Source: a virus (taxonomy: Duplodnaviria > Caudoviricetes). From it: 37,530 nucleotides of DNA. The notes below the pieces were generated by a model. It saw only the letters and a list, made by a program, of their open reading frames with translations, had not been told where the DNA came from and ran no database searches. Location: IMG/VR virus record IMGVR_UViG_3300033562_001394, positions 1 to 37,530 of that record. One strand, 5' to 3'. Shown here piece by piece: positions 556 to 36,944 of the stretch. Position numbers and translations under genes: made by a program. Within the stretch, counting starts at the first letter, position 1; every line of letters starts with the position of its first letter.

Positions 556-563
556 GTTAAATA
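556..563 (+). repeat. Target-site duplication, left copy GTTAAATA
   Basis: Immediately precedes TGTACGG at 564; identical to 36937-36944. Confidence 0.85.
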
Positions 564-650
564 TGTACGGAGACAAGTGGAATGAGACAGATTGACAAGA
601 GATTTGAGAATGAAAAAGTGGTTTGAAAATGAGTAAATGATTGAAAAATA
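564..650 (+). repeat. Left end (attL) with degenerate ~19-bp transposase-binding repeats
   Basis: GACAAGTGGAATGAGACAG (572-590), GACAAGAGATTTGAGAATG (594-612), AAAAAGTGGTTTGAAAATG (613-631); resemble the inverted right-end sites. Confidence 0.7.
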
Positions 651-854
651 TAAAATTATTTGGGGAATGAATGGAATTTTAAAAATTGGTCAGAATTTAA
701 GGGTATTCATGTTTTGATAGTATTTTTAATAAGTTATGACAAAGGAAGCACTTCCTTTCTTCCTTTCTTTTACTTCCTTTGTCTTGATGCTCACTTCCTT
801 AGTCGAATACCGTACCTTTTTACTGTGCTTTTAATAACCCTATTTAAAATAACC

Positions 855-1406
855 TTAACGCTTTTCCCTATTAAAACTACTGATAATCCCATCGGTAAGG
901 TACACAACAAGGTAGCCGTCCGTGTAATCGTACCACAATCGCTTCTTTTTCTTATTTTGCGATATTTCTTCCCTAACTTCTGAATATTCGCCAAGAATGT
1001 AGAGCAGGTCAGTTTCGGTTAAGCCAATCTCAATTTTCCCTTCATCCCTAAGTTTGTTGAGGTATTTTAGGCGAGCGATGCGTTCATCGCGCTGTTCGAG
1101 ATGGTCCTTGGCGTGTTGGCGATATTGTTCGGCTTTTTGTGGGTCTTTTTCACAAGTGTCGTCGATGATTGTGCCGCGTTGCCAAACGACTGTGCATGGG
1201 GGATTGGGGTGTTGAAATTTTCCCTCATACCAATACGGCATTCGACCTGATAGATGTGGCGTACCCGTGCGGTTGTCGTTCCATTGGTAGGTGCGTGGAT
1301 ACCGTGCTTCATAATCGGCATCGAACTTAGGTGGTTCGTTGGCATATACCGCACCTATCAAAAGGCTAAAAGCCCATGATTTCTTGAGCACGGCGGACTT
1401 CTTCAC
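855..1406 (-). CDS. Putative exported protein downstream of the repressor (lysogenic conversion or exclusion candidate)
   Basis: Signal-peptide-like N-terminus MKKSAVLKKSWAFSLLIGAVYA; C-terminal IEIGLTETDLLYILGE...WY motif resembles SmpA/OmlA-like domains. Confidence 0.6.
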   Translation of the reverse strand: MKKSAVLKKSWAFSLLIGAVYANEPPKFDADYEARYPRTYQWNDNRTGTPHLSGRMPYWYEGKFQHPNPPCTVVWQRGTIIDDTCEKDPQKAEQYRQHAKDHLEQRDERIARLKYLNKLRDEGKIEIGLTETDLLYILGEYSEVREEISQNKKKKRLWYDYTDGYLVVYLTDGIISSFNREKR

Positions 1407-1731
1407 GGGCGCGATCCAGCTCTATGCGTACCATTTCTAAGGTATCGCTTAACTCGCTGATTAAAATTGGTTTTCCTGTCTTTTTGTTCAAATAAGTGAC
1501 GTTGGGCGTTGCACCCGCGTACATCTCTCCCTCTCCCGTCAAAAGCCAATGCAGGCTTATTTCAGGCAATTTTTTGGCGATATTTATCGCTATCTCCATG
1601 TTTAAATTTGATTTTTTGCCCGATTCTATATCTGAGAGATAGCTGGTCGATATTTCGATGACCTCAGAAAACGCTTTTTGGTTTAATTTTTTTTCGCTTC
1701 TTAATGCCCTGATTCTATTGCCAATCGTCAT
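1366..1731 (-). CDS. Prophage repressor, XRE-family HTH
   Basis: IGNRIRALRSEKKLNQKAFSEVIEISTSYLSDIESGK and WLLTGEGEM motifs; leftward gene at the Mu c position. Confidence 0.9.
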   Translation of the reverse strand: MTIGNRIRALRSEKKLNQKAFSEVIEISTSYLSDIESGKKSNLNMEIAINIAKKLPEISLHWLLTGEGEMYAGATPNVTYLNKKTGKPILISELSDTLEMVRIELDRAREEVRRAQEIMGF

Positions 1732-1754
1732 ATAAAAATCCTCTACAGAAAAAT

Positions 1755-1859
1755 AATTTCGCTGTAGCTGTTGACAAATTTCGCTGTGGCGAATAATCTA
1801 TGTCCATACCGCACGGACATAATGTCTGTAGGTAAGGTAAAAAAATACCGCACGGTCAT
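1755..1859 (+). promoter_or_regulatory. Early promoter with operator repeats
   Basis: TTGACA (1771-1776)-N17-TAATCT (1794-1799); AATTTCGCTGTRGC at 1755 and 1777, the second within palindrome TTCGC-N4-GCGAA; ATACCGCACGGWCAT at 1806 and 1845. Confidence 0.7.
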
Positions 1860-1883
1860 GCGGCTTAACATTTGGGAATGTGT

Positions 1884-2171
1884 ATGGACGTACAAGAAGT
1901 AGAAAGACTTCTAAAGGACGAAACAGGTAAATCGTTGATTGAATGGTCAACTTCACACGGCTACAAGCTAGATACCGTTCAAAAAACGATTCGCCGTTGG
2001 AATCATCGAACGCACGGACACCCAGGGGGGATTGCAGCTGAGATTGCGATCAAACTGAGCGTTGACATTGGTAAAGCGATAACCCCTGTACTCAAGAAAC
2101 ACATCAAGGCAATCGTAGCATACGAAAAGGAACTTAACAATGGCACTGAGTCAAGACAAACGAGCGATTGA
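1884..2171 (+). CDS. Ner-like DNA-binding protein (BcepMu gp16-like)
   Basis: GKSLIEWSTSHGYKLDTV...GIAAEIAIKL pattern; divergent from the repressor. Confidence 0.7.
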   Translation: MDVQEVERLLKDETGKSLIEWSTSHGYKLDTVQKTIRRWNHRTHGHPGGIAAEIAIKLSVDIGKAITPVLKKHIKAIVAYEKELNNGTESRQTSD

Positions 2172-2430
2172 TGCGTATGTCAGTAAAGAATTAAAGGAAT
2201 TTCTTGCGCAAAAAGCTAAAGAAGATGGGTTATCGATGTCGACCTTAGCGGGTGACGCGCTTTTGCAATACGCGAAAAAGCAAGGATTTCAAGAGACTGC
2301 GCAATTAGATGAAGTAATGATCGAACAAGCCCGCGCCAATCCAAAATGGGCAATGGAGATGTTTCAACGGATGGCGCAAGCAATTGCCGAAACGCCCACC
2401 AAAATGGTTTTTGCAATGGTATGTGGATAG
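2140..2430 (+). CDS. Ribbon-helix-helix-like DNA-binding protein
   Basis: IDAYVSKELKEFLAQKAKEDGLSMSTL fits a CopG/RHH pattern. Confidence 0.6.
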   Translation: MALSQDKRAIDAYVSKELKEFLAQKAKEDGLSMSTLAGDALLQYAKKQGFQETAQLDEVMIEQARANPKWAMEMFQRMAQAIAETPTKMVFAMVCG

Positions 2431-2482
2431 TCGGTGAAGTGAAGGTGGTAATGGTTATTTTAGCGTTTTTGGCGGGGTTGAT

Positions 2483-2731
2483 ATGGAAACGTTAATGTTA
2501 CTCGCAGCGCTGGCAGCCCCACACGAAGCGTTGTTCACGATTACCCAGATATGTTGGGATGCAACAAAGGGTTATGAGTTACGCGAGGATTTTAAATGGG
2601 CAACGCATTCGCCCACTCCCGTTAAGGTCATTCAAGTGAAGAAAGGCTGCAAAGGGAAAGGAAATCTAGCGTGCGATGAATGGGAATGTATGTATTTTCC
2701 CCCTAAAAACAAACCTGAATTAAGAGGATAA
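2483..2731 (+). CDS. Hypothetical protein
   Basis: ORF with purine-rich RBS in the early operon. Confidence 0.5.
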   Translation: METLMLLAALAAPHEALFTITQICWDATKGYELREDFKWATHSPTPVKVIQVKKGCKGKGNLACDEWECMYFPPKNKPELRG

Positions 2732-3266: not shown

Positions 3267-5183
3267 ATGATTTGGTTGAAAATCTCTGAAGTAAGCAAAT
3301 TAGCGGGTGTATCTGAACGAGCCATTCAGCTTATTGCTAAAAACGGCAAAGCATGGCGCGGTGCGCAGGTTGAGATCAGAGAAGTGGCGGGGATGGGACG
3401 GGGTGGCAAAAGCTATGAGTTTGCATTGGAATCGTTACCCATTGAGTTGCAAAAGAAATACGCAAAAAGCCAAGTCAAAGCATTGCCTGAAACGGTTGTG
3501 GAAAAAGTTGTGCCAATCCAAGTTCCCGATAAAAACAGTTTGTGGAGTGGATTTGAGATTAGACCCGATTCAATCAAAGAAGAAGCGAAGAGAAAACTTA
3601 ATATTTTGAATGAATTAGAGGATTTTCTAGCGAAAGGGCTGGGCGAAGTGAGGGATTTTGCGCTCACGCAAGAGGTCACTGCGGCGACTATCTATCGGTG
3701 GAAGCAAAAGCTCAAAGGGATCGACAAATCGGATTGGCTGCCCGTTTTAGCGGATAAGTACGTGGGCGGACTCCCAACCGCAGAAATTAGCGACGCAGCA
3801 TGGTCGTTTTTCAAGACTTGTTATTTGAATCGGGCGAAAAAACACGCGGCAACCGCCTATAAATACACGGTGATCGCGGCTCGGGAGAATGGTTGGTCGC
3901 TCCCCTCGTACCGTACGGTATTGAGAAAGCTGCAACGTGACGTACCCAACGACGTAGTACGGGTGATGCGTGAAGGAAGCGATGTGGTGAAAGAATTGAT
4001 GCCCAAAATCCGTCGTACCACCGAATGGATGAAAGCCCTTGAATTGATAAACGGTGACGGTCTTGACCCTAAATTGACCTTCGGGGTGGTGTTCACCGAA
4101 GACGGTGAGGTGATTCCACACCCCAAAATCTGGATTTGGCAAGACGTGTACAGCGGGATGATTTTAGGATTTGAACTCGCCAAAAGCGAAAACCGCGACA
4201 TGATTCGCACATCGTTGGGTGAAGTGATTGAAAAGTATGGGATTCCCGATGCCGTGTTGCTCGATAACACCCGCGCAGCAGCAAACAAAGAATTGAGTGG
4301 AGGGATTTCACATCGTTATCGTTTCAAAGTTAAAGAAGAAGAAGCGGACGGGATTCTGAAAATCCTAGGGATTCAAGTGCATTGGGCAACCCCAGGGCAA
4401 GGTTGGGTGAAACCGATTGAACGCAAAAACCGTGATTTGAACGCGCTCATTCCCAACCACCCAATTGTTTTAAATGCAATGACAGAGAAACGCCCTGTTA
4501 GCGATATTGAATTGAATCAAGTTATTTTATCAGCGGTCGAGCAAATTAATAGCGACGTGAAATGTAGAAGTCAGATTTGTGGTGGGGTAAGAAGTCCTTA
4601 TCAAGTGTTTGAAGAATCCTATCAAAAACAATTGATTACTAGACTTACCGTTGAGCAACGCCGTTTATTTATGCTTGCTGCTGAAGGGGTTTCTGTTAGA
4701 AAGGACGGATATATTTCGTTTTATGACAATCTGTATTGGAATGCAGCCTTAGCAAACCATCGGGGTCAAAAAGTTATCGTACGATTTGATGCGAAGGAAC
4801 TTAGAAAGGCGGTTGCGGTGTACATGACCGACGGACGCTTTATGTGTGAAGCCGATTATCAACCCAGCATCGGATTTCTGGATCGGGAAGGCGCACGAAC
4901 CGCAAAACGAATCCAAAAGAATTACAAAGATTCACTTAAAAAAGCTACTGAATTACAGGTCAAAATGGGTGCATCATTAGCGGCAAAACTTATGCCAGAA
5001 ACGCAAAAAACCGTTGAAATTCAACACACTAATGTGGTCAAAGGGCATTTTGGCAAAGGAATTAAAAAGGAAGTGAACGAACCCATGAAGGCAACTGGTA
5101 CGGATGGGAAATCGTATGAAGATGTTTTTACAGCGAATTTAGCAAGATTGAAAGCTGAAAAAGCAAAGAAACCAGTGATTTAA
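3267..5183 (+). CDS. Mu-family DDE transposase (MuA-like)
   Basis: N-terminal Mu HTH (GRGGKSYEFALESLP), I-beta/gamma-like region, catalytic candidates INGDG / LLDN / KPIER, C-terminal NLY...VIVRFD. Confidence 0.95.
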   Translation: MIWLKISEVSKLAGVSERAIQLIAKNGKAWRGAQVEIREVAGMGRGGKSYEFALESLPIELQKKYAKSQVKALPETVVEKVVPIQVPDKNSLWSGFEIRPDSIKEEAKRKLNILNELEDFLAKGLGEVRDFALTQEVTAATIYRWKQKLKGIDKSDWLPVLADKYVGGLPTAEISDAAWSFFKTCYLNRAKKHAATAYKYTVIAARENGWSLPSYRTVLRKLQRDVPNDVVRVMREGSDVVKELMPKIRRTTEWMKALELINGDGLDPKLTFGVVFTEDGEVIPHPKIWIWQDVYSGMILGFELAKSENRDMIRTSLGEVIEKYGIPDAVLLDNTRAAANKELSGGISHRYRFKVKEEEADGILKILGIQVHWATPGQGWVKPIERKNRDLNALIPNHPIVLNAMTEKRPVSDIELNQVILSAVEQINSDVKCRSQICGGVRSPYQVFEESYQKQLITRLTVEQRRLFMLAAEGVSVRKDGYISFYDNLYWNAALANHRGQKVIVRFDAKELRKAVAVYMTDGRFMCEADYQPSIGFLDREGARTAKRIQKNYKDSLKKATELQVKMGASLAAKLMPETQKTVEIQHTNVVKGHFGKGIKKEVNEPMKATGTDGKSYEDVFTANLARLKAEKAKKPVI

Positions 5184-5244
5184 ATCGGTCGTGAGGGCGC
5201 AATCCTCACAACCACTAACTCTTAACCCAATGAAGGTATTCATT

Positions 5245-5589
5245 ATGGAAACTTATGTTAAAAATATTGGCGCAATCGGAGTTAAAAATATTGGCGCAAT
5301 CGGAGTTGAAAATATTGGTCCAATCGGCGTAACTACTGTTGCAAACTATTATTTTCCTGTGAAATTGGGTTACACAGCGGTAATCGAAACACAAAAATGT
5401 AAATACATTTCAGTTCGTCGAAATAAAAAAAATGGGTATTGGGAGGTTGTTTATAATAAAAAAATTTTGGGATCATTTGTAAATAAGAAAGAAGCAATTA
5501 ATTCTAAGTTGAGGTTAAAAAAATACCTTAAAAAATGCCGTAGACTTGACATGCGGCGAAAAGTGCGGTACGGTATTCGCACTACTTAA
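5245..5589 (+). CDS. Small basic protein with VKNIGAIG repeats and an AP2-like DNA-binding motif
   Basis: KYISVRRNKKNGYWEVVYNKKILGSFVNKKEAI resembles the AP2 W...LG.F....EA pattern. Confidence 0.5.
   Translation: METYVKNIGAIGVKNIGAIGVENIGPIGVTTVANYYFPVKLGYTAVIETQKCKYISVRRNKKNGYWEVVYNKKILGSFVNKKEAINSKLRLKKYLKKCRRLDMRRKVRYGIRTT
5257..5328 (+). repeat. 3 x 24-bp tandem repeat GTTAAAAATATTGGCGCAATCGGA
   Basis: Two identical copies (5257, 5281) and one diverged copy (5305). Confidence 0.9.
5546..5574 (+). promoter_or_regulatory. Sigma70-type promoter for the C4/rha unit
   Basis: TTGACA-N17-TACGGT. Confidence 0.6.
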
Positions 5590-5657
5590 ATCCAGTGCGG
5601 TCATCCGCAATTCGTTAATTCCTGCGGCTTTTTTTTGCCCGTTGTGTTATGCTTTTT

Positions 5658-5723
5658 ATGCGGGATGAGAAGGGAAAATATCCAATATCCCTCGCCGTTC
5701 ACTGGACGGTAGTTGAGTCCCGC
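5658..5723 (+). ncRNA. C4-like antisense RNA
   Basis: Closing stem GCGGGA/TCCCGC; CACTGGA and GTAGT are complementary to upstream ACTAC...TCCAGTG (5581-5597) and downstream ACTA...CCAGTG (5747-5761) at the rha RBS. Confidence 0.7.
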
Positions 5724-5770
5724 TCCCACTCATTTTTTGGGAGCATACTAAAAAACCAGTGAGGCATTAT

Positions 5771-6340
5771 ATGTCTAATTTATTCCCTGCTCTAATTACG
5801 CCCGACGTTTCTATCGTTAATGGCGAACCTCAAACAACCTCCCTTGCAATCGCTGACTTCTTTGGTAAATTCCACAAAGACGTTCTTGAAAAAATAAAAC
5901 TTCTTGATTGTTCTGAAGAATTTTCACGGCGGAATTTTACGCTGTCAAATTACACCACAGAACGCGGCAGAAATTACCCGATGTATAACATTACAAAAGA
6001 CGGGTTTGTGTTTTTGGTGATGGGATTTACGGGACGCGAGGCGATGAGATTCAAAGAAGCGTACATTAAACGGTTCAATGAAATGGAAGCGACACTCAAA
6101 AAAGGCGTTAAAAGTCAAGTGGATAGCCACGCTTACATTGAGGTTTTAGAGAAATACGTTGCATTGCTGGAGGAAAAGAACGTGCCAAAACCCAAACGTC
6201 ACGCTGGCAAACGGGTCACGGATGAAGCAAAGATCAAATTTAGCACACTACGCGAAGCGGGTTTTACGAATATTGAAATCGCCGAGCAAACGGGCTATTC
6301 AGATTCAACGGTGAGCTTGATTTTAAAGGGGATGATGTAA
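5771..6340 (+). CDS. rha: Rha-family phage regulatory/antirepressor protein with C-terminal HTH
   Basis: TTSLAIADFFGKFHKDVL...YPMYNITKDGFVFLVMGFTG...FKEAYIKRFNEME is the Rha signature. Confidence 0.92.
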   Translation: MSNLFPALITPDVSIVNGEPQTTSLAIADFFGKFHKDVLEKIKLLDCSEEFSRRNFTLSNYTTERGRNYPMYNITKDGFVFLVMGFTGREAMRFKEAYIKRFNEMEATLKKGVKSQVDSHAYIEVLEKYVALLEEKNVPKPKRHAGKRVTDEAKIKFSTLREAGFTNIEIAEQTGYSDSTVSLILKGMM

Positions 6341-6543
6341 TGAAAATTGTCTTAGAATACCCAACATCTAATGATTTCTTTGATGCGTTGCAGAATAAAA
6401 TCGTCCAACTCAACAACTTTGCCAATGCTGCAATCAAAGGTGAGCTTTCTGGTGACGATCTCGTTTGCCAAAATGCTATTGATGCGTTATGCGCAGACAT
6501 AATCGACCATCTTAACCAAGCCAGCAAAATCTTTAAAATCTAA
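6340..6543 (+). CDS. Hypothetical protein
   Basis: Coupled to the rha stop (TAATG). Confidence 0.6.
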   Translation: MKIVLEYPTSNDFFDALQNKIVQLNNFANAAIKGELSGDDLVCQNAIDALCADIIDHLNQASKIFKI

Positions 6544-6565
6544 TCAGGTGTAATTCCTCCAAATT

Positions 6566-6597
6566 AAAAGCTGACCTTCGGGTTGGCTTTTTTTATG
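6566..6597. terminator. Intrinsic terminator, possibly bidirectional
   Basis: AAAAGCTGACC-TTCG-GGTTGGCTTTTTTT. Confidence 0.8.
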
Positions 6598-6828: not shown

Positions 6829-6829
6829 A

Positions 6830-7327: not shown

Positions 7328-7846
7328 ATGGCGGCATTAAAAAGACCCGCAGCACCTACTACCGTTGAAGAGGTTGAAACATTGATTTCTGAATTAGGGC
7401 GTTTGCAACGTGAAAGTAAGCGTTTTGAAACGGAAATGAATGATGAAATTGCCAAGGTAAAATCGGCGTATGAAGAAGTAAATCGCACTAATAACGAAAG
7501 TATTAGTGAACTTACAGATCGGTTGTATTTGTATGCGGAGAGAAACCGTGAAGATTTATTGAAAGGTGGAAGAAAAACCGTACCTTTCACAAATGGCGAG
7601 TTTTCATGGAGATTTGCGCCTAATTCTGTGAGAGTAAGTAGTGCAGAGTTAGCTATTTTAAATTTGAGAAACGCTGGATTAGAACAGTTTATTCGCACAA
7701 AAGAAGAAATTGCTAAGGATATGATTAAAGCCGATCCCGATGCAATCAAAGGAATTAAAGGGCTTTCAATCAAGAAAGGCGAGGAGTTTTTCTATGTGAA
7801 ACCCTTTGAAACAAACTTAGAAACTGCGGTTGCGGTGCGTTCCTAA
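7328..7846 (+). CDS. gam: Mu Gam-like DNA end-protection protein
   Basis: EMNDEIAKVK...YAERNR...KTVPFTNGEFSWR...FIRTKEEIAK...EEFFYVKP. Confidence 0.9.
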   Translation: MAALKRPAAPTTVEEVETLISELGRLQRESKRFETEMNDEIAKVKSAYEEVNRTNNESISELTDRLYLYAERNREDLLKGGRKTVPFTNGEFSWRFAPNSVRVSSAELAILNLRNAGLEQFIRTKEEIAKDMIKADPDAIKGIKGLSIKKGEEFFYVKPFETNLETAVAVRS

Positions 7847-8094
7847 TGGACATCACGAGAAACACGGGTTCAATTTATTATACCGTTGAGTATCGTGGTA
7901 AGGAATTTCAAGTCGTTGCAATGTATTCACGCGGCGACTGGAATTTTGAAATGCGCAGAGGAGGAATATCATTAACGCCTTCGTTGCAACCCATTCAAAC
8001 AAGTGGTTTGTATCCAACCAAACAAGAGATAGAAACTGCTATTTTAAATATGTTTGTTTTTAACCCACAACTTAACCAATACTTTGAGGATTAA
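7846..8094 (+). CDS. Hypothetical protein
   Basis: Translationally coupled to gam. Confidence 0.55.
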   Translation: MDITRNTGSIYYTVEYRGKEFQVVAMYSRGDWNFEMRRGGISLTPSLQPIQTSGLYPTKQEIETAILNMFVFNPQLNQYFED

Positions 8095-8097
8095 CTC

Positions 8098-8421
8098 ATG
8101 CCAAGAGAAAAGAGCAACACCCTTTCAAAAGCCGATATTGCCGCTGCGCTTTCTGTGATTCACGACAGCACACTCACGAAAGTCAAAGCAGCAGAGATCA
8201 TGGATACCATTTCTGAAGTGATTTTAAAGGCATTAGAAGAAGGTAAAACGGTGGATTGGTATCGGATGTTCAATCTCACGCCAGAATGGAAACTCGCCCA
8301 CAAAGGTCGCCATCCTAAAACGGGTGAAGAAATTGAGGTTGCTGCGAAATGGATGGTTTCTGCAAGACTTTCTCAAACCGTGAAAGATGCCGTGAAACAA
8401 TTACCACCACCCACCCTTTAA
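8098..8421 (+). CDS. HU/IHF-like DNA-binding protein
   Basis: SKADIAAAL...ALEEGKTV...GRHPKTGEEIEVAAK...LSQTVKDAV. Confidence 0.88.
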   Translation: MPREKSNTLSKADIAAALSVIHDSTLTKVKAAEIMDTISEVILKALEEGKTVDWYRMFNLTPEWKLAHKGRHPKTGEEIEVAAKWMVSARLSQTVKDAVKQLPPPTL

Positions 8422-8503
8422 AAGCGAAACGGGGTTTCTTTGTGAAATCCCGTCTTTCTAAAGTCGCGTTTAGAAACTGATGAGCAGCGAATGGAGAATA
8501 AAG

Positions 8504-8713
8504 ATGTTAGAAGTAGAGGTTTTAGTAACGAAAGTTAATGGGAAGTTAAACGCGAAATATTTGCCTGAATATCCATTATCAGGAAAGCCTTGCAAGGTTT
8601 CAATAGTATATAGTCCAAAAGAGCTTGGTAATGATTTAGAAGCTCAACAATTTGGAGAATGGAGTGCTGGTATTATTGATTATTTAGGAAATAAACCATG
8701 CAAGCGAAACTAA
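8504..8713 (+). CDS. Hypothetical protein
   Basis: GGAG RBS; lies within the operon. Confidence 0.5.
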   Translation: MLEVEVLVTKVNGKLNAKYLPEYPLSGKPCKVSIVYSPKELGNDLEAQQFGEWSAGIIDYLGNKPCKRN

Positions 8714-9105
8714 TTAAAACGATTTCAACGGCGAAGTCAAAGCTAGGAATTGACGAGGATGATTGGCGTAATCAAATCCTGCCCCGATTTGGTGCGAAAG
8801 AAATCAACGGACGGGTGAGTTTAAAATCGCTTTCTATTGTGCAAATGGAAGCACTTTTAGAGGAATTAAGAAGTAAAGGTTTTGAGAAACCCGTTGGCAC
8901 AAAACCCTTTGACCAGCTCGCCTATATTAGATTGCTGTGGAAAGAATTGTACGAGTTGGGGATTGTGAGAAACCCAAGTGAGAAAGCCATCATTGCATGG
9001 GCAAAGCATTATTTTGAAGGATTGGATTGTCTTGAATGGTTGAACGTTAAGCAAAAAATCAAACTCATTCAAGCCCTTAAAGATTGGAAAAAACGAGGAA
9101 AATAG
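8698..9105 (+). CDS. gemA: GemA (Mu gp16-like, DUF1018) protein
   Basis: IKTISTAKSKLGIDEDDWR...SLKSLS...GF...IRLLWKEL...LIQALKDW. Confidence 0.88.
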   Translation: MQAKLIKTISTAKSKLGIDEDDWRNQILPRFGAKEINGRVSLKSLSIVQMEALLEELRSKGFEKPVGTKPFDQLAYIRLLWKELYELGIVRNPSEKAIIAWAKHYFEGLDCLEWLNVKQKIKLIQALKDWKKRGK

Positions 9106-13121: not shown

Positions 13122-13124
13122 CGT

Positions 13125-14979: not shown

Positions 14980-14985
14980 GATTTT

Positions 14986-15514: not shown

Positions 15515-15545
15515 ACGCTGAAATCCTTGATATTTAAATGATTCC

Positions 15546-21883: not shown

Positions 21884-21895
21884 GGAATTTTAATC

Positions 21896-22639: not shown

Positions 22640-22650
22640 GAAGTCAAGCC

Positions 22651-23058: not shown

Positions 23059-23097
23059 GTTATCCCTACTCGTTTTTAATGAAAGTGGTTGATTTTT

Positions 23098-25503: not shown

Positions 25504-25505
25504 CC

Positions 25506-25874: not shown

Positions 25875-25876
25875 CT

Positions 25877-26896
25877 ATGCCTTTACAAGCCACAGATTTA
25901 GTGTTACGTCCTTCAAAATATGTTAGCCAAACCGATGGCGACGGCGGCATGATGGACAGTTCTAAAAGCATTTCAAATAATGTGATTGGAAATCTCATCA
26001 AAAACGTAACAAATGCTCAAAGAACCAATGGTGCTTCATTACATTACAAAGCCTTTATCCACAATATAAGTGCAAGTAGCAACTTGTTTAAAGAAAGTGT
26101 GGCGTATTTAGGAAGACAGGTTGATGGTGTGCCGATTTCTTTGTTGGCGGGAACGCAAACAAATACTTGGGAAACCGCTAAAACAGGTCAAAAATACGGC
26201 GTGGGCAACCTTAAAACCGCCGTCACAGCGGGTTTGACAACCGTTGTGGTAATAACCCAAGGGCGGGCATTTAACCACTTCGTAAATGGCGGTTTAGTGG
26301 TCATTCAAAACCTTGCAAGTCCAACGGATTCAACAGGTCAATACGAAACTGTGCGAGTTTCTAGTGTTTCATGGAGCGGCGACGAAGCAACCTTAACCCT
26401 TGCCACGCCGTTGGAATATGATTATCCCACTAGTCGAACGGTTAATTTTCAAACCGTCAAAACCCGCATATCAAGTGCGATTGAATCTGGAGATGTCAAG
26501 CCCACAGCCACCACCCTCGACAAGGTCAGCGCGGGAACAGTCACCGAAAGCGCGTTAATCCTTAATTTTGCAGGCACAATTGCGCAAACCCTCACCCTTT
26601 CATTCACCAGCGCAAACACCTTTCTTGTGACCAGTTCTTTGGGGATTACATTGCCAGCGGGACAACGAAACGCAACCTACGCCCCACAAAATCCAGATGC
26701 GTTCCAACCCTATATTTCAGTGCCGTCGTCCTTCTGGACGGGAACGTGGGCGGCGGGTGATAGCATCAAAATCACCACCATTCCCGCTGCTATTCCGTTA
26801 TTTGTTTTACTTGAAATCCCCATCGGTTCTCCTTCAGTAGATTTGGGTCTATCGGGGATTTGGTATTTAGGCGATGACGGCGGTGTGGTTGTATGA
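25877..26896 (+). CDS. Tail-associated structural protein
   Basis: DGGMM...NLIKNVTNAQRTNG...KAF motif; Thr-rich. Confidence 0.6.
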   Translation: MPLQATDLVLRPSKYVSQTDGDGGMMDSSKSISNNVIGNLIKNVTNAQRTNGASLHYKAFIHNISASSNLFKESVAYLGRQVDGVPISLLAGTQTNTWETAKTGQKYGVGNLKTAVTAGLTTVVVITQGRAFNHFVNGGLVVIQNLASPTDSTGQYETVRVSSVSWSGDEATLTLATPLEYDYPTSRTVNFQTVKTRISSAIESGDVKPTATTLDKVSAGTVTESALILNFAGTIAQTLTLSFTSANTFLVTSSLGITLPAGQRNATYAPQNPDAFQPYISVPSSFWTGTWAAGDSIKITTIPAAIPLFVLLEIPIGSPSVDLGLSGIWYLGDDGGVVV

Positions 26897-28515: not shown

Positions 28516-30389
28516 TGGCAACTCTGCTCAACAAATACCAAAAATGGTTTGAAGAATTGCCTTATACAGAACTCTATACCGCAGCAAAAGGGGTAAATTC
28601 AATTGAGTATGAAGAGAGGAAGGAGGGTGGGAATATAGAGATTGTTGCAACCTCAAAACTCCCTGAATTACAAAACAAAAATTATCAAAATGCAAACATC
28701 TTTAATCGCCCAAAGAAAAACGATTTGGAATACCAAACAAATGGCTATTCAAATGACTGGTTTAAATCAACACTAAAGTATCTTTATGAGAAAAAGCAAG
28801 CTACTTTATTAGAAAACTTTATTGGTGCTGCTTTTTCTACATATAGGGTTGGTGAGTTTTATTTGTTATTTTCGAAAGAACAAACTGGTTTTAATTTGCA
28901 TTTAAAAATCAACGATGTTGAATATAAATTGGAAAAAACTACTATTTCTAACGTTAAATCCAGATTGAAGGGCAGTGGTTTTGATGTGTTTGAATTGCCT
29001 AATGGGGCTTTTCCTGATTTAGAAAAAGCACCCACACTTCGGGTTTCAATTCCTAAAGAATCAAATGATATTTTCTTTGATTTAGAAGAGCTAGAATCAA
29101 ATGATATAGAGGTTATTGAAGTGGCTTTTTCAATATCTTTTGATTTTGATTTTGCGGATGAGAAATTTGACCACACACAACCAAATATAGTTGTTGGTGA
29201 TGATACTGGAATTATGAGTATTCACTATATTATTGATAAAGAACAAGGTGAGGAAAACAAATTAAGAATTGGCGTTTTGAAATATTGGATGACAATAGAT
29301 TATTCACAAGACACCACAAAGGATGCTACTAAATTTTTTATGACCTATCGGTTATATTACTTAGATGATATTTTAAAATATAGAGAAAAGCCACGTTCTG
29401 CTTTTAGAAAAAGTAAAGAAGAACTAAGAGGAACAGGGGTTATTTGTGCACCTCCTTTCTTAATTAAATCAGAATCTTGGAAACGAGAAAGACCTTATTA
29501 TAGCGGGGAAGATATGGCTGACTACCTGTTTTATGCGATGGGTGAGTCTGTTCCTATTGGAAATCCTTTGTGGGGTTATGCTTTTAATAGCCAAACCTCT
29601 TATTCAAAAGAAACCCAAACAGCGTCTGTAACTGTTTATCATCAAACAAATCAAGGTAGAACAACTACTGGAAACATTGAAATAAAAAACTTTCATTTTA
29701 ACGCTACAGGCTCAATTCATAATGAGCAACAAAGTTCTGTTTATTGGATTCGACAAATCAGAGGAGGGGATTTCAGTGTTACACCTGATGATACTAAAAA
29801 TAATTATGATAATAGAAATGTTCATAGGTATTTAGATGTTTATTGGCATAATAAATATGAAGAAAAAGAGAAAACAACTTTAAAGGATAGAAGCGGTCAA
29901 AAATTAGCTGAGATCGACTGGTGGATTGGCACGGGAAGGGCAAATGAAAATAATGGGATGTATGTAAGCGATTATATTCATGCCAACTCGCCTTTTTCTG
30001 CTGATAAAATCACTGCAATTATTGATGTTGAGTATCCTAATTCACTTTGTTATGTTGAAGTAAGTAAAGATAGAACGTATTTAGATTTCTTAGAACTAAG
30101 AGAGCAAGAAAGAGAGGATTTAATCGCCTATATAGATAAGCAAACAAACGCAAGAGAACAATTTAAAACGTTAAAAGAAAACATTTTATCGCTTGATAAG
30201 AAGGATGAAAAGTACGATGAGAAGGTAGAATCCTTTATTGATGCTTTTGAGAAGAGTTTCTATAAGATTTTGTATAACAATTTTTGCGGTTGGGATGTCA
30301 TAAAGCAACTGAATGGCGGACAAACCTATTTCATTTTAAAACGGACAGAAGAAGAGGAAGAAGAAGATGGCGAACGTGAAACCAATTAA
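28515..30389 (+). CDS. Hypothetical tail-region protein (AT-rich)
   Basis: About 624-aa ORF with TAATG coupling. Confidence 0.6.
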   Translation: MATLLNKYQKWFEELPYTELYTAAKGVNSIEYEERKEGGNIEIVATSKLPELQNKNYQNANIFNRPKKNDLEYQTNGYSNDWFKSTLKYLYEKKQATLLENFIGAAFSTYRVGEFYLLFSKEQTGFNLHLKINDVEYKLEKTTISNVKSRLKGSGFDVFELPNGAFPDLEKAPTLRVSIPKESNDIFFDLEELESNDIEVIEVAFSISFDFDFADEKFDHTQPNIVVGDDTGIMSIHYIIDKEQGEENKLRIGVLKYWMTIDYSQDTTKDATKFFMTYRLYYLDDILKYREKPRSAFRKSKEELRGTGVICAPPFLIKSESWKRERPYYSGEDMADYLFYAMGESVPIGNPLWGYAFNSQTSYSKETQTASVTVYHQTNQGRTTTGNIEIKNFHFNATGSIHNEQQSSVYWIRQIRGGDFSVTPDDTKNNYDNRNVHRYLDVYWHNKYEEKEKTTLKDRSGQKLAEIDWWIGTGRANENNGMYVSDYIHANSPFSADKITAIIDVEYPNSLCYVEVSKDRTYLDFLELREQEREDLIAYIDKQTNAREQFKTLKENILSLDKKDEKYDEKVESFIDAFEKSFYKILYNNFCGWDVIKQLNGGQTYFILKRTEEEEEEDGERETN

Positions 30390-31194
30390 GGCGCGCAATG
30401 CACGCAAGTATATGCTTGATGGGACGGTTGATTTTGATACCGATACTTTCATGGTGGCGTTGCTCACTAGCGCGTACCAACCCATCAAAAGCCGTGCCAA
30501 TTCAACCAGTTACTTGACTGGGGATTGGTATCGTGACGCATCGGACAATGGGCATTTCTACCGCTGCATGAAAGCGGGTCAAAGCGCGTCCAGTCAACCG
30601 ACCGTCAAAACCGACGGGACGGCTTTTGTTGATGGCACTGCAACCTTTCAAGATATGGGGATATTGTACACGCCCGTGATCCCCGCCCGTGCGAACACCA
30701 CCGCGTACATCGTTGGGCAAGCCTACCAACCCGCTGTTTTTAATGGGCATTGGTACATTTGCACGGTCGCGGGCACGAGCGCGAGTTCTGCGCCCGTCTT
30801 TACCTCGAATGGTACGATTGTTGTCGACGGCACTGCAACCTTTCAAGACATGGGTGTGCGATTCCCAGAAGTGTTTGTGAGTGACTTGACCTATGGCGAC
30901 GTTGCCGCGTATGAAATCACGGGCACGGGTTACACGACAGGCGGTTTAACCCTCGCAAACGTCACGGTTACTCGCAACGGCGATGCCTACATGATCGATG
31001 CCAATGATGCGGTGTGGGCGGGTGCAACTTTCAACGCACGGCACGCGGCACTGTATAAAAACGGCACTGCAAATTCTGTGGAAAATGCGTTGATGGGGAT
31101 TTTTGAACTCGACGAATCCCATGCGGACGTGGGCGCGAGCAGTTCGAGCTTCACCATCCAATGGAACGACAACGGCATTTTCACGCTTGCCTAA
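30367..31194 (+). CDS. Minor tail protein with two internal CBM-like repeats
   Basis: DFDTDTFMVALLTSAY / GTGYTTGG / FTIQWNDNGIF frame with 2 x 65-aa RAN.T.Y..G...NGH.Y.C..AG.S...DGTATFQDMG. Confidence 0.7.
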   Translation: MANVKPIKARNARKYMLDGTVDFDTDTFMVALLTSAYQPIKSRANSTSYLTGDWYRDASDNGHFYRCMKAGQSASSQPTVKTDGTAFVDGTATFQDMGILYTPVIPARANTTAYIVGQAYQPAVFNGHWYICTVAGTSASSAPVFTSNGTIVVDGTATFQDMGVRFPEVFVSDLTYGDVAAYEITGTGYTTGGLTLANVTVTRNGDAYMIDANDAVWAGATFNARHAALYKNGTANSVENALMGIFELDESHADVGASSSSFTIQWNDNGIFTLA

Positions 31195-31203
31195 GGAGTT
31201 GAC

Positions 31204-32169
31204 ATGAAAGCAATCTACCAATACAACGCGGGTGCAACCGCTGCTCATATCCTTAGCGATTTGACGGCGATTTTCACCGGAGAAACCACCGTTGCAAACC
31301 TTTCTGCCAGTTGTAATAAAGCAACCACCACCATTACATCGGTCGTTGCGGCGGGTTGGACGTTGCACGATGGTTCGGCGAGTTCAACCTCAAAAGTCAT
31401 CAAAGCACCCTATGCCGATGACGGCGCAACGTTCAAATACGCAGAGATTTCAATTCCCGATAACAACGGCGTGCGAATGTTTGGGTATGAAACCTTTAAT
31501 GCAACCGCCCACACAGGTACAAATAAAACTGCAAATAATTCAGGATTTTACCAACGTATTGATGTTGCAAATAGCGGTAAATTATACCTTTATTCAAGCG
31601 CCCGTTTTCTAATGGTAGTTGCTGAAACAAATTCTTATTGGGGTGATGTAAATGCTGCTGGTGATAGTTATTCGGGACCGTTTCTAATTGCCGAGCATTC
31701 ACGCATTGCCCCGTGGAATACAGTGGCGAGCGGGTATCCAGCGTTTTGTTTCATTTCAATGTCGTTGGTGAATTATGGGAACTTGAATTCGTATTACGCT
31801 CCTATCTATTCACCGCGTTTCAAAAATAGATACGATGCGGATTTGACGAGTTCAAATGCAATCCTTTGGGGTTCTTCTGTGTGCGGATATAATATGTTTA
31901 ATGACGCGAACAACTTTCCCCAAGGCGTTGATGCGAAGATTAGAGATAGTAGTGGAAGCCTTCAAATTCCGTTTTTACCGTTGTTTTGCAATTCGCCTTC
32001 ATTGACGGTTATTCCAATGGGAGATTTTTCAAGTATTTCAGATGTTTGGCTTGCACCTGCGGGCGTGTTAGCTAACTTTGAAACCATTGCAAAAGATTCA
32101 AATAACTATATTGCAATTCGTTACGGATCACAGTCTTTAAATCATAGAATCCTTGTGAGAAACGAGTAA
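31204..32169 (+). CDS. Putative tail/receptor-binding protein
   Basis: AGGAG RBS; A/S/T/N-rich; tail operon position. Confidence 0.55.
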   Translation: MKAIYQYNAGATAAHILSDLTAIFTGETTVANLSASCNKATTTITSVVAAGWTLHDGSASSTSKVIKAPYADDGATFKYAEISIPDNNGVRMFGYETFNATAHTGTNKTANNSGFYQRIDVANSGKLYLYSSARFLMVVAETNSYWGDVNAAGDSYSGPFLIAEHSRIAPWNTVASGYPAFCFISMSLVNYGNLNSYYAPIYSPRFKNRYDADLTSSNAILWGSSVCGYNMFNDANNFPQGVDAKIRDSSGSLQIPFLPLFCNSPSLTVIPMGDFSSISDVWLAPAGVLANFETIAKDSNNYIAIRYGSQSLNHRILVRNE

Positions 32170-32173
32170 AGAA

Positions 32174-34627
32174 ATGGCATTTCAATTCCCTTCATTTCCA
32201 ATCCAATTTGCACCATATCCGATAGCGAATGGATTTGCGATAAACGTCCCGTTGCAATTTGGAACAACGGAGACGGCGACGGGTTTTGGAATGCTATTTG
32301 TCACGATTGGATTTGCAAATTATCCAATTTATCAAGGGCTTGCAATTAATGTGCCCGTGCACTTTGGGCTTCCTGAAACACGGACGGGTTTTGAGTTCCC
32401 GATAATTTACCCTAAAGGTTTAGGGGGAACTCCGCCGCTTCTTTTAGTTCCGCCGTCGATGGATTTTAGCCTTGATATACCCACGCCGACGGTGGTTATT
32501 CCCCATTTAAGTGCCGTTTTAGAGCCACTTAATTTTGATTTTAGCCCTCAAATCCCTCATGTTTTTGCGAGTTTTCAAACGACTTCGCCGCAGGTTGAAT
32601 TTGATTTAACCATCGAAAACCCTACTGTTCACGCGGGTGCAAACCTGTTTGTTGAGCCGCTGTCGTTTGCGTTGGAAATGCCCGCGCCATCCTTTGCGAG
32701 TGCGCAGATCATTTTCGTGCCAACGACGGAATTTGACCTTACAATTCAAACACCTACCGTTCACGCGGGTGCACATCTTTATCCGCCCGCGCTTGACTTT
32801 GAGTTAAAACTCCAAATACCCAAGTGTTTTTCAAGTTGGCATGGTTTATGTCAAGCTGAAAACTTCTTCTTAACCCTTGAAACGCCTAGTGTTTTCGTAG
32901 CCGCTGTTGTAAATGTGCCCGCGTCCGCGTTTGATTTGGGAATGCCGCCGCCGCGCATTATGCCGTTTGTGCCGTCGCTAGGTTTCGACCTTGAAATCCC
33001 CGTTCCAACGGTAGTCGTCAGTTTCATTTCAACCGCCGACCCTTTTGACCTTTTCTTTGAAATGCCCACACCCAAAATAAGAAAAGTTATTTTGAGTGGC
33101 ACGGATTTACCTATTTCTTATCGGGTATTATCGGGTATTGACCTACCTTTTTATAGGGAATTGCGGATCATGTCGGGCGTGGATTTGCCCTTGAAAGTCG
33201 TTGAAAATGACAAGGTCATGGCGGGCGTTGATCTGCCCTTCAAAGTAAGGTTGTTATCGGGTATTGACCTACCTTTTTATAGGGAATTGCGGCTCATGTC
33301 GGGCGTGGATTTGCCCTTGAAAGTCCTTGAAAACGACAAGGTCATGGCGGGCGTTGATCTACCCTTCAAAGTAAGGTTATTATCGGGTATTGACCTACCT
33401 TTTTATAGGGAATTGCGGATCATGTCGGGCGTGGATTTGCCCTTTATGGATGAAAAAAAGGTGTTATCTGGTATTGATTTACCCTTTAAGATTCAAGATA
33501 AAACCATCATTTTATCAGGGGTTGATCTTCCTTTCACGTCAATTGAAAAGCCCTCGATCTTTGTGGTTAGCGATGAGAATTATGCGATCCATCAAGGGCA
33601 ACGGGTTGATTTGCTTGACTATATGATTTCACAGGATTGGGATACTTACCTGTGGACGGGTCAAATGTCAATAGCGAATCATCAAGATTACGCACGAATG
33701 CGCAAAAACGATGCCATAATTTTGGTTTTACAAGGTGTTGATTATACGTTGGTTATTCAAAACCGTTCGCATTCTGATGATGGGAATAATGGGCAAGCCA
33801 AATTTACCATCGATGTTGCGTCGCCGACCGTTGCGTTAAGCGATAAAAACCTTAAAATATCAAAGGCATGGGGTGCAGTGATGGCAAGCGTCGCCGCGCA
33901 AGCAATCGTTGAACAACCCATTGATTGGCAAATCGTGGATTGGTTATTGCCAGCGGGTCGTTTGAGTTATGAAAACGCCAACCCAATGGAATTATTAAGA
34001 AAATTAGTCGACGCAGCGGGCGGGATCGTGCAAACCACACGGACGGGATCGCTCAAAGTTCAATACAAAACACCCTGTGCAATCAATAAGTTATCTGCGT
34101 CGGCGATTGATTTCACCTTTTCAGACACCGCCCACATTTTCAACTACGATGAACGCACGCCGAGTGGGGATTTTTTCAACGCGGCGATCATCACCGATAC
34201 GGATAACGCGGTCGACCGCCAATGGTCGGGTGAATACATACCGACCGATGATGTGAGCGGCGTGTTAAGGGTGTATGGTCACGCATGGCTTAACCCAGAC
34301 AGCTTTGAAGTGACCACGACGGGAAATCCAAGCATCAAAATCGGGCAAGGCGTGGTAGTATATATAGAAGAAAATCAAACGCTTGAATTTAAAAAAGGTC
34401 AAGCATCGACCAGTTACCCCGTGTTTATTCTCAGAGAATGTGTGTGGAAATATGCAAATTTAGGAGAATTGATGTGGGAATTGGATTCACCTCAACTCAA
34501 AACCGCCGCGCCGTCGTACAGTGTGGCAGAACTAAAATACACTCGCCGTGTGGTAGATTTCCCGATCCGCCATAACGTGCAAGACCTTGAAACCTCTCAA
34601 TTTTTGGTGGCAGAATATGTCGACTAA
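32174..34627 (+). CDS. Large tail protein with repetitive N-terminal half and hub-like C-terminus
   Basis: Pro/Phe repeats, 11 x [SA]G[IVT]DLP, then WQIVDWLLPAG...NPMELLRKLVDAAGG. Confidence 0.7.
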   Translation: MAFQFPSFPIQFAPYPIANGFAINVPLQFGTTETATGFGMLFVTIGFANYPIYQGLAINVPVHFGLPETRTGFEFPIIYPKGLGGTPPLLLVPPSMDFSLDIPTPTVVIPHLSAVLEPLNFDFSPQIPHVFASFQTTSPQVEFDLTIENPTVHAGANLFVEPLSFALEMPAPSFASAQIIFVPTTEFDLTIQTPTVHAGAHLYPPALDFELKLQIPKCFSSWHGLCQAENFFLTLETPSVFVAAVVNVPASAFDLGMPPPRIMPFVPSLGFDLEIPVPTVVVSFISTADPFDLFFEMPTPKIRKVILSGTDLPISYRVLSGIDLPFYRELRIMSGVDLPLKVVENDKVMAGVDLPFKVRLLSGIDLPFYRELRLMSGVDLPLKVLENDKVMAGVDLPFKVRLLSGIDLPFYRELRIMSGVDLPFMDEKKVLSGIDLPFKIQDKTIILSGVDLPFTSIEKPSIFVVSDENYAIHQGQRVDLLDYMISQDWDTYLWTGQMSIANHQDYARMRKNDAIILVLQGVDYTLVIQNRSHSDDGNNGQAKFTIDVASPTVALSDKNLKISKAWGAVMASVAAQAIVEQPIDWQIVDWLLPAGRLSYENANPMELLRKLVDAAGGIVQTTRTGSLKVQYKTPCAINKLSASAIDFTFSDTAHIFNYDERTPSGDFFNAAIITDTDNAVDRQWSGEYIPTDDVSGVLRVYGHAWLNPDSFEVTTTGNPSIKIGQGVVVYIEENQTLEFKKGQASTSYPVFILRECVWKYANLGELMWELDSPQLKTAAPSYSVAELKYTRRVVDFPIRHNVQDLETSQFLVAEYVD
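33128..33444 (+). repeat. About 2.5 x 126-bp in-frame tandem repeat
   Basis: TTATCGGGTATTGACCTACC starts at 33128, 33254 and 33380. Confidence 0.9.
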
Positions 34628-35228
34628 CAAAGAAATCAAAACCAGTTTTACGGTTCAGTTGGGCAAGGAAAAAGACAGCTCACTGAGCGCGGAGATTGAT
34701 ACCCGTGACCTCATGGATGGTGGGGATAATGCGGCTCGACTGGGCAAAACCAGCGGCTTCGAACCAGGGGAAGACGTGGCTTTCCTTGTCTACGCATCCG
34801 ACAGCGTGACCCTTGACGAACTAAGAAATACCATGGAAGATTTAGGGGCAACTATTGTCGGCGGGGCGACCGTGACCATCAAAGTCGAAGAAACCCTTAA
34901 ATTCCCAATGTTAAACGCCTCCGCCACCCTTTCCAAACCGACCACGCAAGAGAATTTTAGCGCGTATTGGATTGGCAACGATTTGGGATATGCGTCAGTG
35001 GCGAGCGATGGAATCACGGTGAAATTAGGCGAGCCGCCCGTCAAAATCCTCCCGTCCGATGATGACGATACCAAGAAAACCAAGCTCAAAACCTTGCATA
35101 AATGTGGGATTTTGAAGTGTGAATACACCACCTCCGCACGGTTATATCACCTTTACACCCCGCACGAAATCCCCAACCGATTACCTCCTTACGATTTGGA
35201 GGTGATTATTTATGGCACTAAAAATTAA
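34617..35228 (+). CDS. Hypothetical tail-region protein
   Basis: Overlapping ORF in the operon. Confidence 0.6.
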   Translation: MSTNKEIKTSFTVQLGKEKDSSLSAEIDTRDLMDGGDNAARLGKTSGFEPGEDVAFLVYASDSVTLDELRNTMEDLGATIVGGATVTIKVEETLKFPMLNASATLSKPTTQENFSAYWIGNDLGYASVASDGITVKLGEPPVKILPSDDDDTKKTKLKTLHKCGILKCEYTTSARLYHLYTPHEIPNRLPPYDLEVIIYGTKN

Positions 35229-35520
35229 GGTGATTCGTGACGCAGGCGACGTGGAAAAGCCAGACCCGATCGTTAATCCGTATTGCACGGACTTGGTCGC
35301 CGCGTTGCAATTGGGGCGCGTGCAGATCGACCTAGGGTCGAACCCGTCGCCCGTCACGCAAAAGGTTGTTTTTACAGGTGAAGCCTCGGTCGGATGGGTT
35401 TGTGAATCCTTTGACCGACTGAATGGCGCTGCATGGCGTGGGGTTGTTACGGGCGTGCAACATGGCATGGATTCTGCGGGTAAATTAATCACTCAAATCA
35501 ATATGTTAAGAGGGGAATAG
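35212..35520 (+). CDS. Hypothetical tail-region protein
   Basis: GGAGG RBS; GD...PDPIVNP...A..LGR motif. Confidence 0.6.
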   Translation: MALKIKVIRDAGDVEKPDPIVNPYCTDLVAALQLGRVQIDLGSNPSPVTQKVVFTGEASVGWVCESFDRLNGAAWRGVVTGVQHGMDSAGKLITQINMLRGE

Positions 35521-35521
35521 C

Positions 35522-35743
35522 ATGAACCCGTTGGTAGATTTTAAAACCCTTCAAACGACCAGTGCGCAAAGTGGCACGATTGTTGACAAAACGGCGAACG
35601 GCGTGACGGTGAAATTAACCACCGGCAGCGTGTTGGCTTTCCCCAACCAACCCAACCTCGAACTCGGCGATGCCGTCGCACTTTCCAACGGTCGCCTCTC
35701 CAAATCCCCTACCCTTAAAACCACCCAAGTCTATGTGGTTTAG
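35522..35743 (+). CDS. Small tail-region protein
   Basis: MNPL...F...GTIV...GD.V pattern; GAGGGG RBS. Confidence 0.6.
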   Translation: MNPLVDFKTLQTTSAQSGTIVDKTANGVTVKLTTGSVLAFPNQPNLELGDAVALSNGRLSKSPTLKTTQVYVV

Positions 35744-35757
35744 ATTGGACTGAATCT

Positions 35758-35766
35758 TGCTATAAT
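35758..35766 (+). promoter_or_regulatory. Extended -10 promoter for the methyltransferase
   Basis: TGCTATAAT about 50 nt upstream of the ATG. Confidence 0.6.
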
Positions 35767-35815
35767 TCTGTGGTTTTGCGCACGGACGCGCTCACATCAT
35801 AAGGATTTGAAAACC

Positions 35816-36592
35816 ATGAAAAAAGCTATTTTTGGATATTTAGGCGGTAAATCTCAACTTTCCAAACTCATTATTCCCCTTATTCCCGAACACACCTGTT
35901 ATGTTGAACCTTTTTGTGGAGCAGCGTGGGTATTTTTTAAGAAAAATCCTTCAAAAACAGAGATTTTAAATGACTTAAATGGCGAATTGGTGAATTTATA
36001 CCGTGTAATTCGTGATGATTTTGGAAAGTTTGTGCGTTATTTTAGGGGCATACCCATTGCCCGCGAGCAGTTTAACTATTTCAAAAGCCAACGTATTGAT
36101 TTAATTGATGATCCGATTGAACGAGCCGCCCGTTTTTTCTATCTATTACGGACATCTTACGGCTCAAAAACCTTTAAACCAACGCTTTCTATTACACACA
36201 GTCGCCCTTCAAATTTAAATTTACTCACCTTGAAACGAGAAATTATGCGCGGACAACAACGGCTTGCGCGGGTTTATTTAGAAAACCTACCTTATTTTAA
36301 GGTCATCGAACGCTACGATCGCACTGACACTTTCTTTTATATTGATCCGCCGTATTGGAATTGCGAGGATTATTATGGGGAAGGCTTGTTTGAAAGGGCA
36401 GATTTTGAACGGATGCGCGATTTATTGTTGAAAATAAAAGGAAAATTTATCATGAGTTTGAATGACTTGCCCGACGTGCGGCGGGTTTTTGGCGATTTTA
36501 ATTTCAAATCCGTTACCGTCCGCTACAGCGTGCAAACAGGTAGCGCTAAAATTATTCCCCGCTTCAGCGAAGTCTTGATTTCTAACTTTTAA
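35816..36592 (+). CDS. Dam-like (D12 class) N6-adenine DNA methyltransferase at the mom position
   Basis: YLGGKS, YVEPFCG, ILND and FYIDPPY motifs. Confidence 0.93.
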   Translation: MKKAIFGYLGGKSQLSKLIIPLIPEHTCYVEPFCGAAWVFFKKNPSKTEILNDLNGELVNLYRVIRDDFGKFVRYFRGIPIAREQFNYFKSQRIDLIDDPIERAARFFYLLRTSYGSKTFKPTLSITHSRPSNLNLLTLKREIMRGQQRLARVYLENLPYFKVIERYDRTDTFFYIDPPYWNCEDYYGEGLFERADFERMRDLLLKIKGKFIMSLNDLPDVRRVFGDFNFKSVTVRYSVQTGSAKIIPRFSEVLISNF

Positions 36593-36615
36593 ATTGTTCA
36601 TACTTTTATAGGGGA

Positions 36616-36647
36616 AAAAGCTAGCCTTCGGGTTGGCTTTTTTTATG
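36616..36647. terminator. Intrinsic terminator
   Basis: AAAAGCTAGCC-TTCG-GGTTGGCTTTTTTT. Confidence 0.8.
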
Positions 36648-36788
36648 CCACATGGTTAGAATATGCACGGTCGCGTACAAAAAAATCTACGGGTTTTTGC
36701 CTTGCTGACTACCTCAGAATCCACCACAATCGCCCATTTTTAAAATTTAAGAGGGCACTTAAAATTTAAGCCCGCCGGCTTAAAAATT

Positions 36789-36936
36789 CCAGTCGCAAAC
36801 CAGTTGGCAATAAATCGGGATTTAACAAAAACCAGTCGCAAACCAGTTGGCACGACCCCGCCCGCAATCCCGCATTATACCGTCATATTCCATAATATCC
36901 CGCCTCCCCCAGTCGCAAACCACCTGCCCGCTTACA
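36789..36936 (-). repeat. Right end (attR) with three transposase-binding repeats
   Basis: CCAGTCGCAAACCAGTTGGCA at 36789 and 36832; CCAGTCGCAAACCACCTGCCC at 36909; terminal TTACA. Confidence 0.85.
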
Positions 36937-36944
36937 GTTAAATA
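36937..36944 (+). repeat. Target-site duplication, right copy GTTAAATA
   Basis: Immediately follows the terminal CA; identical to 556-563. Confidence 0.85.

Follow-up and report, generated by a model that had tools for sequence, protein, structure and literature searches.

Transposable phages of the Mu type are recognised in part by the scar that they leave in the target, phage Mu producing a duplication of 5 bp and phage B3 one of 6 bp, and the available text of one source names a 5- or 6-bp scar as a mark of transposable prophages and gives 36–39 kb as the size range of the Mu-like ones (PMC8705779). As far as the accessible portions of the structural literature describe it, the two cuts that Mu makes in its target lie 5 bp apart and the target has to be bent (PMC5357137), the bend amounting to approximately 140 degrees, while spacings of 2–9 bp need differing bends (PMC6900584). 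In the current study we analysed a 37,530-nucleotide stretch of viral DNA (Duplodnaviria; Caudoviricetes; IMG/VR record IMGVR_UViG_3300033562_001394, a single contig classed as a virus record), referred to below as the window, in which a Mu-type prophage with TG…CA termini occupies positions 564–36936. The element works like Mu yet departs from two of its defining features, as its scar measures 8 bp rather than 5 or 6 bp and it has no MuB. Its transposase, MuA, likely joins the phage ends to target positions 8 bp apart, and likely does so through the loss of a loop from the catalytic domain.

The prophage shares with Escherichia phages Mu and D108 a MuA with the same DDE residues, TG…CA ends bearing three transposase sites each, a length of approximately 36 kb (36,373 bp, with head, packaging and tail genes, and thus within the range quoted above) and genes for a repressor, Gam, GemA, Mor and gp27- and gpF-like proteins. 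Unlike these phages, it carries an 8-bp duplication, lacks the loop corresponding to Mu A residues ~419–430 as well as MuB, and has its protease and capsid genes fused, its packaging module encoded on the opposite strand and a Dam-like methyltransferase in the mom position. It does not belong to Muvirus (Mu, D108) in the strict sense, given the differing layout and head module, nor is the record filed under that genus. A duplication other than 5 bp is a feature in common with Pseudomonas phage B3 and Leptospira transposable prophages, to judge by the available text of PMC8705779, but the latter employ a B3/Tn552-type transposase and generate 6 bp, while the enzyme of the present prophage is of the Mu family (its rve match falls below the cut-off and its DDE_2 match far above it). 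The nearest full phage with genomic context, L338/G675, encodes a loop-less MuA on a sister branch and has in common with this prophage the repressor, GemA, two early ORFs and the methyltransferase; it differs in carrying MuB directly after MuA and in the absence of any head or terminase match to the prophage at E 1e-4, while its left flank is missing from the contig.

The duplicated 8-mer, GTTAAATA, is present in two copies on the + strand, at 556–563 and 36937–36944, which directly abut TGTACGG (starting at 564) and CTTACA (ending at 36936), respectively. The aligned ends are identical at 18 of their first 27 bases (18/28 in a second alignment), and three MuA-type sites were discerned at both the left end (564–631, +; sites at 571–590, 593–612 and 612–631) and the right end (36790–36936, −; sites at 36910–36929, 36833–36852 and 36790–36809). 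Since the binding-site matrix behind this count already held L1 and R1–R3, only L2 and L3 constitute independent finds; in a leave-one-out end matrix built without this prophage, 564 and 36936 ranked best in their own regions. Among all TG/CA pairs in 501–700 × 36800–37049 this is the only one flanked by a repeat of at least 6 bp, and the chance of this 8-mer at fixed ends, given the flank composition, is 8.7e-5. Contigs of six metagenome runs, among 23 listed, were compared with the window, runs with small shares being left aside, and fix the termini independently: in X9 one contig begins exactly at 564 and another finishes exactly at 36936, while in X6/X7, which are probably a single data set, similarity breaks at 36936 with a different flank beyond. 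The same break is seen in L020, a relative. A duplication of 5 bp with one end displaced is thereby excluded, in agreement with the original prediction that no 5- or 6-bp duplication fits these ends.

An empty allele with a single 8-mer had been set beforehand as a check on the prediction, and was found in X3 and X4, which derive from two other studies. Contigs of both match the left flank as far as 564 and then pass straight into right-flank letters (21/21 and 28/30 of the shown letters alike), so that the empty site comprises one 8-mer. The filled left junction is also present in X3 and X4, and one X3 contig has its first base exactly at 36937 and a depth of 12.3 versus 6.2 for the filled junction, the twofold depth to be anticipated if filled and empty alleles come together there. 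The possibility that the repeat is an artefact, arising from miscalled ends, a pre-existing target repeat or a chimeric assembly, might be entertained in view of the AT-rich target and of the T that follows the 8-mer on both sides, but is scarcely credible: the empty site is single-copy, the ends are fixed by X9, X6/X7 and L020, and both junctions were recovered in X3 and in L012/L014. This reading is refuted as far as contigs, which rather than reads make up the empty-site and end evidence, can show. X3, X4, L012 and L014 represent the same insertion as this prophage and not new ones; relatives occupy other sites in X6/X7 and L020, and the X9 contigs break off at either end, a pattern that mixed flanks would produce. 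A metagenome scan returned 15 loci, namely two with the same insertion, one with only the right end of a relative and 12 unrelated, and a pattern search with the left flank yielded five viral matches, all of them unrelated.

MuA (3267–5183, +; 638 aa) exhibits approximately 32% identity to Mu A, is matched above cut-off by PF02914, PF09039 and PF09299, and contains a DDE triad (D264, D333 and E385) which aligns with D269, D336 and E392 of the Mu protein; the closest fold to its predicted structure is the Mu transpososome 4FCY. The segment from the catalytic E385 to the conserved N428 (4419–4550, +) spans 43 residues as compared to 56 in Mu A, reflecting a deletion of approximately 11 residues that removes the loop matching Mu A ~419–430. 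The length of this loop is bimodal among 438 non-identical homologues, of which 46 have 48 residues or fewer and 392 have 52 or more, with none between, and the deletion occupies an identical position in all 11 loop-less cases with readable ends. Close relatives of this MuA are few (96, 86 and 68% identical, the next being at most 39%), and none with genomic context was found in viral_contigs or genome_contigs, collections from which very near records may be missing.

As controls, 38 genome-borne MuA prophages, all loop-bearing, for which right-end regions were retrieved, were assessed with the leave-one-out end matrix (seeded on twelve 5-bp cases and this prophage), which chose ends blind to the repeats. 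It revealed a 5-bp duplication in 21 and no repeat in the remaining 17, with no other length observed, as against 8 bp for the prophage. A joint score contributed three further loop-bearing elements with 5 bp, and G479 and G1144, likewise loop-bearing, gave 5 bp each; with two loop-bearing G1192 elements counted among the unreadable ones and the loop-bearing G110 left out, ends were readable in 26 of 42 loop-bearing elements, all of which display 5 bp. The MuA of G479 is 44% identical to that of G041, a 16,037-bp element which was selected because it lacks the loop, its ends being determined only afterwards, and which is bounded by an 8-bp duplication. Further loop-less elements were obtained from a draw of 401 genomes of the class of G042, bringing the readable loop-less elements to 11 of 16: seven with 8 bp (this prophage, G041, G934, G798, G1057 and two copies in G704), four with 7 bp (G854, G819, G851 and G725) and none with 5 bp. 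Both lengths are considered real because the duplications are not nested readings of one another. The G704 ends are located on four contigs, from which two pairs were matched by their flanks, and G819, G851 and G798 each have one end below the top score of the matrix. The unreadable loop-less elements are G039, which has no end signal, and G042, G043, G675 and G1023, which are incomplete; G971, incomplete and with its loop unread, is in neither count. Draws of 61 and 401 gammaproteobacterial genomes yielded no loop-less elements. Long repeats of 9–10 bp suggested by the joint score in L057, L028, L058, L060 and L099 (E 0.014–0.048) were rejected, their termini being un-Mu-like and none being upheld by the blind matrix, while a Fisher's test (11/0 versus 0/25) was set aside because the elements are related.

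Since all loop-bearing elements with readable ends show 5 bp and all loop-less ones 7–8 bp, including each of the ten other than this prophage, the long stagger appears to be a property of a MuA subgroup rather than an accident, which supports the proposal of the original prediction that this MuA has a different strand-transfer stagger. Neither of the two observations named there as refuting came about, since the empty site has a single 8-mer and the homologues that share the loop deletion show 7–8 bp, the 5-bp scars being those of loop-bearing homologues. It was also conceivable that the enzyme normally generates 5 bp and that the 8 bp at this locus is a one-off, produced by recombination of two copies 3 bp apart or by aberrant repair without MuB; the close clade does offer a single readable insertion, and the prophage does lack MuB. 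Such an event is nonetheless improbable, as the ten other loop-less elements include two separate copies in one genome, the annotated loop-less elements carry MuB, and a long repeat occurs in 0 of the 26 readable loop-bearing elements. We therefore regard the long stagger as very probably intrinsic to this MuA.

The loop itself has, in our estimation, an even chance of being the main cause. Its association with stagger is perfect among the readable elements, from which causality can at most be inferred, and there is a less probable but substantial alternative whereby the 7–8-bp stagger is intrinsic but the deletion merely marks ancestry, the cause residing elsewhere, for instance in the domain III helix or the tetramer interfaces. 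In favour of this alternative, a FastTree phylogeny built with the loop columns excluded and rooted on Mu A unites 42 of the 46 loop-less proteins in one group (support 0.77); a single origin of the loop-less enzymes was not rejected (AU p 0.252, on a quick tree without mixture model), and domain III stabilises the target bend in Mu, according to the part of PMC5357137 that was available. Set against this, a 39-protein mixture-model tree places the loop-less proteins on three branches and demands at least two changes (the starred branches forcing 2), the length of the stagger goes with the state of the loop throughout the branches of that tree, and the deletion falls at one and the same place throughout. 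On the suggestion that the prophage may mark a distinct lineage of transposable phages the trees differ, the large one grouping most loop-less enzymes together and the smaller one dividing them among three branches. The trait is, moreover, found outside phages: the relatives with readable ends are 12–20-kb elements, with no capsid or portal match in the three that were annotated.

Several further observations weigh against the explanation favoured here. The trees yield only 1–2 independent contrasts, so that common descent may account for both the missing loop and the long stagger, and the relatives with 7–8 bp are only approximately 31–37% identical to the prophage in MuA, while no second duplication was measurable in the close clade (68–96% identical MuA). 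The clade of the prophage bears other changes near the active site, among them four extra residues after D264, and the predicted structure (pTM 0.41) is unsure around the catalytic loops. Concerning the measurements themselves, 5-bp cases served as seeds of the end matrix, the G704 duplications depend on flank-based pairing across contigs, and ends were unreadable in 16/42 loop-bearing and 5/16 loop-less elements.

A mechanism modelled on the chemistry of Mu may be proposed. MuA would bind the three sites at each end and nick at the terminal CA, after which a staggered attack on the target, followed by host gap filling, would copy the stagger as a duplication. Residues 410–430 of Mu A reportedly contact the target. 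In the absence of the loop the transpososome may hold a less sharply bent target, or its active sites may be spaced differently; more base pairs would then fit between the cuts, and a looser fit may permit either 7 or 8. Parallels exist among retroviral integrases (4–6 bp) and other DDE transposases (2–9 bp), within which, in the accessible portions of PMC9410886 and PMC6900584, spacing varies within a family and goes with target bend: integrases with a 5–6-bp spacing favour a more obtuse target than the 4-bp PFV, and RSV mixes 5 and 6 (PMC9410886). In these same portions no single deletable loop is tied to spacing, and the available text of PMC5961161 describes a domain IIα loop held in the IIβ cleft and gives no residue numbers for it. 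A literature search covering titles and abstract openings, with subscription papers and supplements outside its scope, found no report of 7–8 bp for a MuA element, nor is there any in the parts available of bioRxiv 2026.05.11.724261, bioRxiv 2022.08.05.502904 and PMC9371665.

A broader and distinctly tentative proposition would be that the loop of approximately 11 residues acts as the ruler for the stagger and underwent repeated loss, the duplication going from 5 to 7–8 bp on every occasion, with loop-less enzymes driving both full phages and 12–20-kb, capsid-less, satellite-like Mu elements; the clade of this prophage might even transpose without MuB.

Concerning MuB, tblastn with four MuB queries gave no match anywhere in the window (best E 0.14), in which neither an AAA family match nor a fitting Walker A was found, and no MuB AAA+ ATPase gene adjoins MuA, a point on which the original prediction is silent. 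Among 160 control loci a MuB match was obtained in 143 and four were incomplete; the remaining 13 include 11 in which MuA is directly followed by a Walker-A ORF. According to family scans and MuB searches, the usual place of MuB (5184–6597, +) is taken by a 114-aa ORF (5245–5589), Rha (5759–6340), a 67-aa ORF and a terminator-like repeat, the two ORFs being single-member clusters and that following MuA having no family in the Atlas. The Rha cassette, with a structured-looking leader, spans 5545–6597 in the prophage and is found in L020 at 5359–6400, there in the methyltransferase position at the right end. Among the best 120 of 245 MuB matches, none could be assigned to contigs carrying a close-clade MuA. 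Most likely the Rha cassette replaced the MuB gene, loss by replacement being the simplest reading because the nearest full phage has MuB; the prophage has most likely been left helper-dependent or poor at transposing as a consequence of lacking MuB. Mu-family MuA accompanied by a short (~240–275 aa) ATPase-like ORF that is missed by Mu-type MuB queries was observed in L025, L033, L060, L091, L146, L148, L153, L190, L192, L208, L209 and L217, of which L060 still makes 5 bp.

The precisely bounded loop-less elements (G854:C41:48771-62260, G934:C69:3084-15958, G1057:C210:1807-13952 and G041:C18:89912-105948, in addition to G798, G819, G851 and G725) span 12–20 kb. Annotation covered 14, 10 and 15 ORFs within the ends of G854, G934 and G1057, respectively, and 11 ORFs of G041. 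Among these four, genes for a repressor, a Ner-like protein, MuB, GemA and/or Mor were recognised, with tape-measure-like genes in three, and G041 also has tail chaperones and a small terminase, whereas matches to a capsid, a portal or a large terminase are absent from the annotated ORFs. The 12–20-kb elements are thus candidate transposable phage satellites or reduced prophages. Two short elements possess a gene of approximately 550 aa combining HTH and DDE_3 (IS630-like) domains in the same place near the right end (L359:16098-17777 and L362:14179-15828), perhaps a native second transposase-like gene.

The remaining gene content of the prophage begins with a repressor-like HTH protein in the c position (1366–1731, −; PF12844/PF01381, phrog_8) and a small divergent gene in the ner/cro position (1872–2171, +), assigned by its location and matched only by phrog_8503, of unknown function. 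Relatives in X3, X4 and X9 switch sequence at ~799 and ~1492, which points to the left-end cargo and repressor region as exchangeable modules. Family scans identified a semi-essential region (7328–9105, +) comprising Gam (7328–7846), an HU-like protein (8098–8421) and GemA (8698–9105); a type II hammerhead ribozyme (8422–8493, +; RF02276, 47.7 bits against a gathering threshold of 37) lies directly 3′ of the HU-like gene and overlaps the next start codon. The packaging module (10937–15886, −; gpF-like protein, portal, large terminase, gp27-like small terminase and the Mor activator) runs opposite to the other late genes, unlike in Mu, and is followed by the fused protease-major capsid gene (16186–18084, +; phrog_4523, PF25209). 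The tail region (20833–35743, +) includes a completion protein, the major tail protein (21896–22639), the tape measure (23089–25503) and tip/fibre-like genes, several of which have no family, and the Dam-like adenine methyltransferase in the mom position (35807–36592, +) is matched by PF02086, with TIGR00571 below cut-off. A 32-bp terminator-like stretch is present in two places (6566–6597 and 36616–36647).

On its left the prophage is bordered by a cI-like HTH gene of another, probably mobile, element (112–489, −; phrog_8, PF01381) and on its right by a promoter-like stretch and small ORFs without family (36945–37530, +). This right-hand flank, whose small ORFs are divergent, has ~3–6 times the depth of the phage in X3, X6 and X7, and the insertion has probably struck the control region of a different mobile element. 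The empty site (549–563 joined to 36945–36958) restores TTGCGT, 17 bases and TACTAT, a sigma-70-like promoter, by eye and as a consensus match only, that the insertion would have split; a 9-bp inverted repeat at 509–531, also noted by eye, adjoins this site and may represent the operator of the flanking repressor. The compared runs derive from mats, biofilm, soil and groundwater, and NCBI gives the MuB of sister phage L338/G675 the name of a protein from Beggiatoa leptomitoformis; our guess at the host would be a sulfur-mat gammaproteobacterium.

The 5-bp stagger has been treated as fixed for MuA, and since a 5- or 6-bp scar is used both to find transposable prophages and to set their boundaries, according to the available text of PMC8705779, such searches would overlook elements with 7–8 bp or place their ends wrongly. 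The loop deletion is a natural one and goes with the stagger in each of the 37 elements whose ends could be read. It thereby offers a direct and cheap handle on what determines how far apart DDE transposases cut, in the model enzyme that has been studied best, and could be relevant to insertion tools based on Mu and TnsB.

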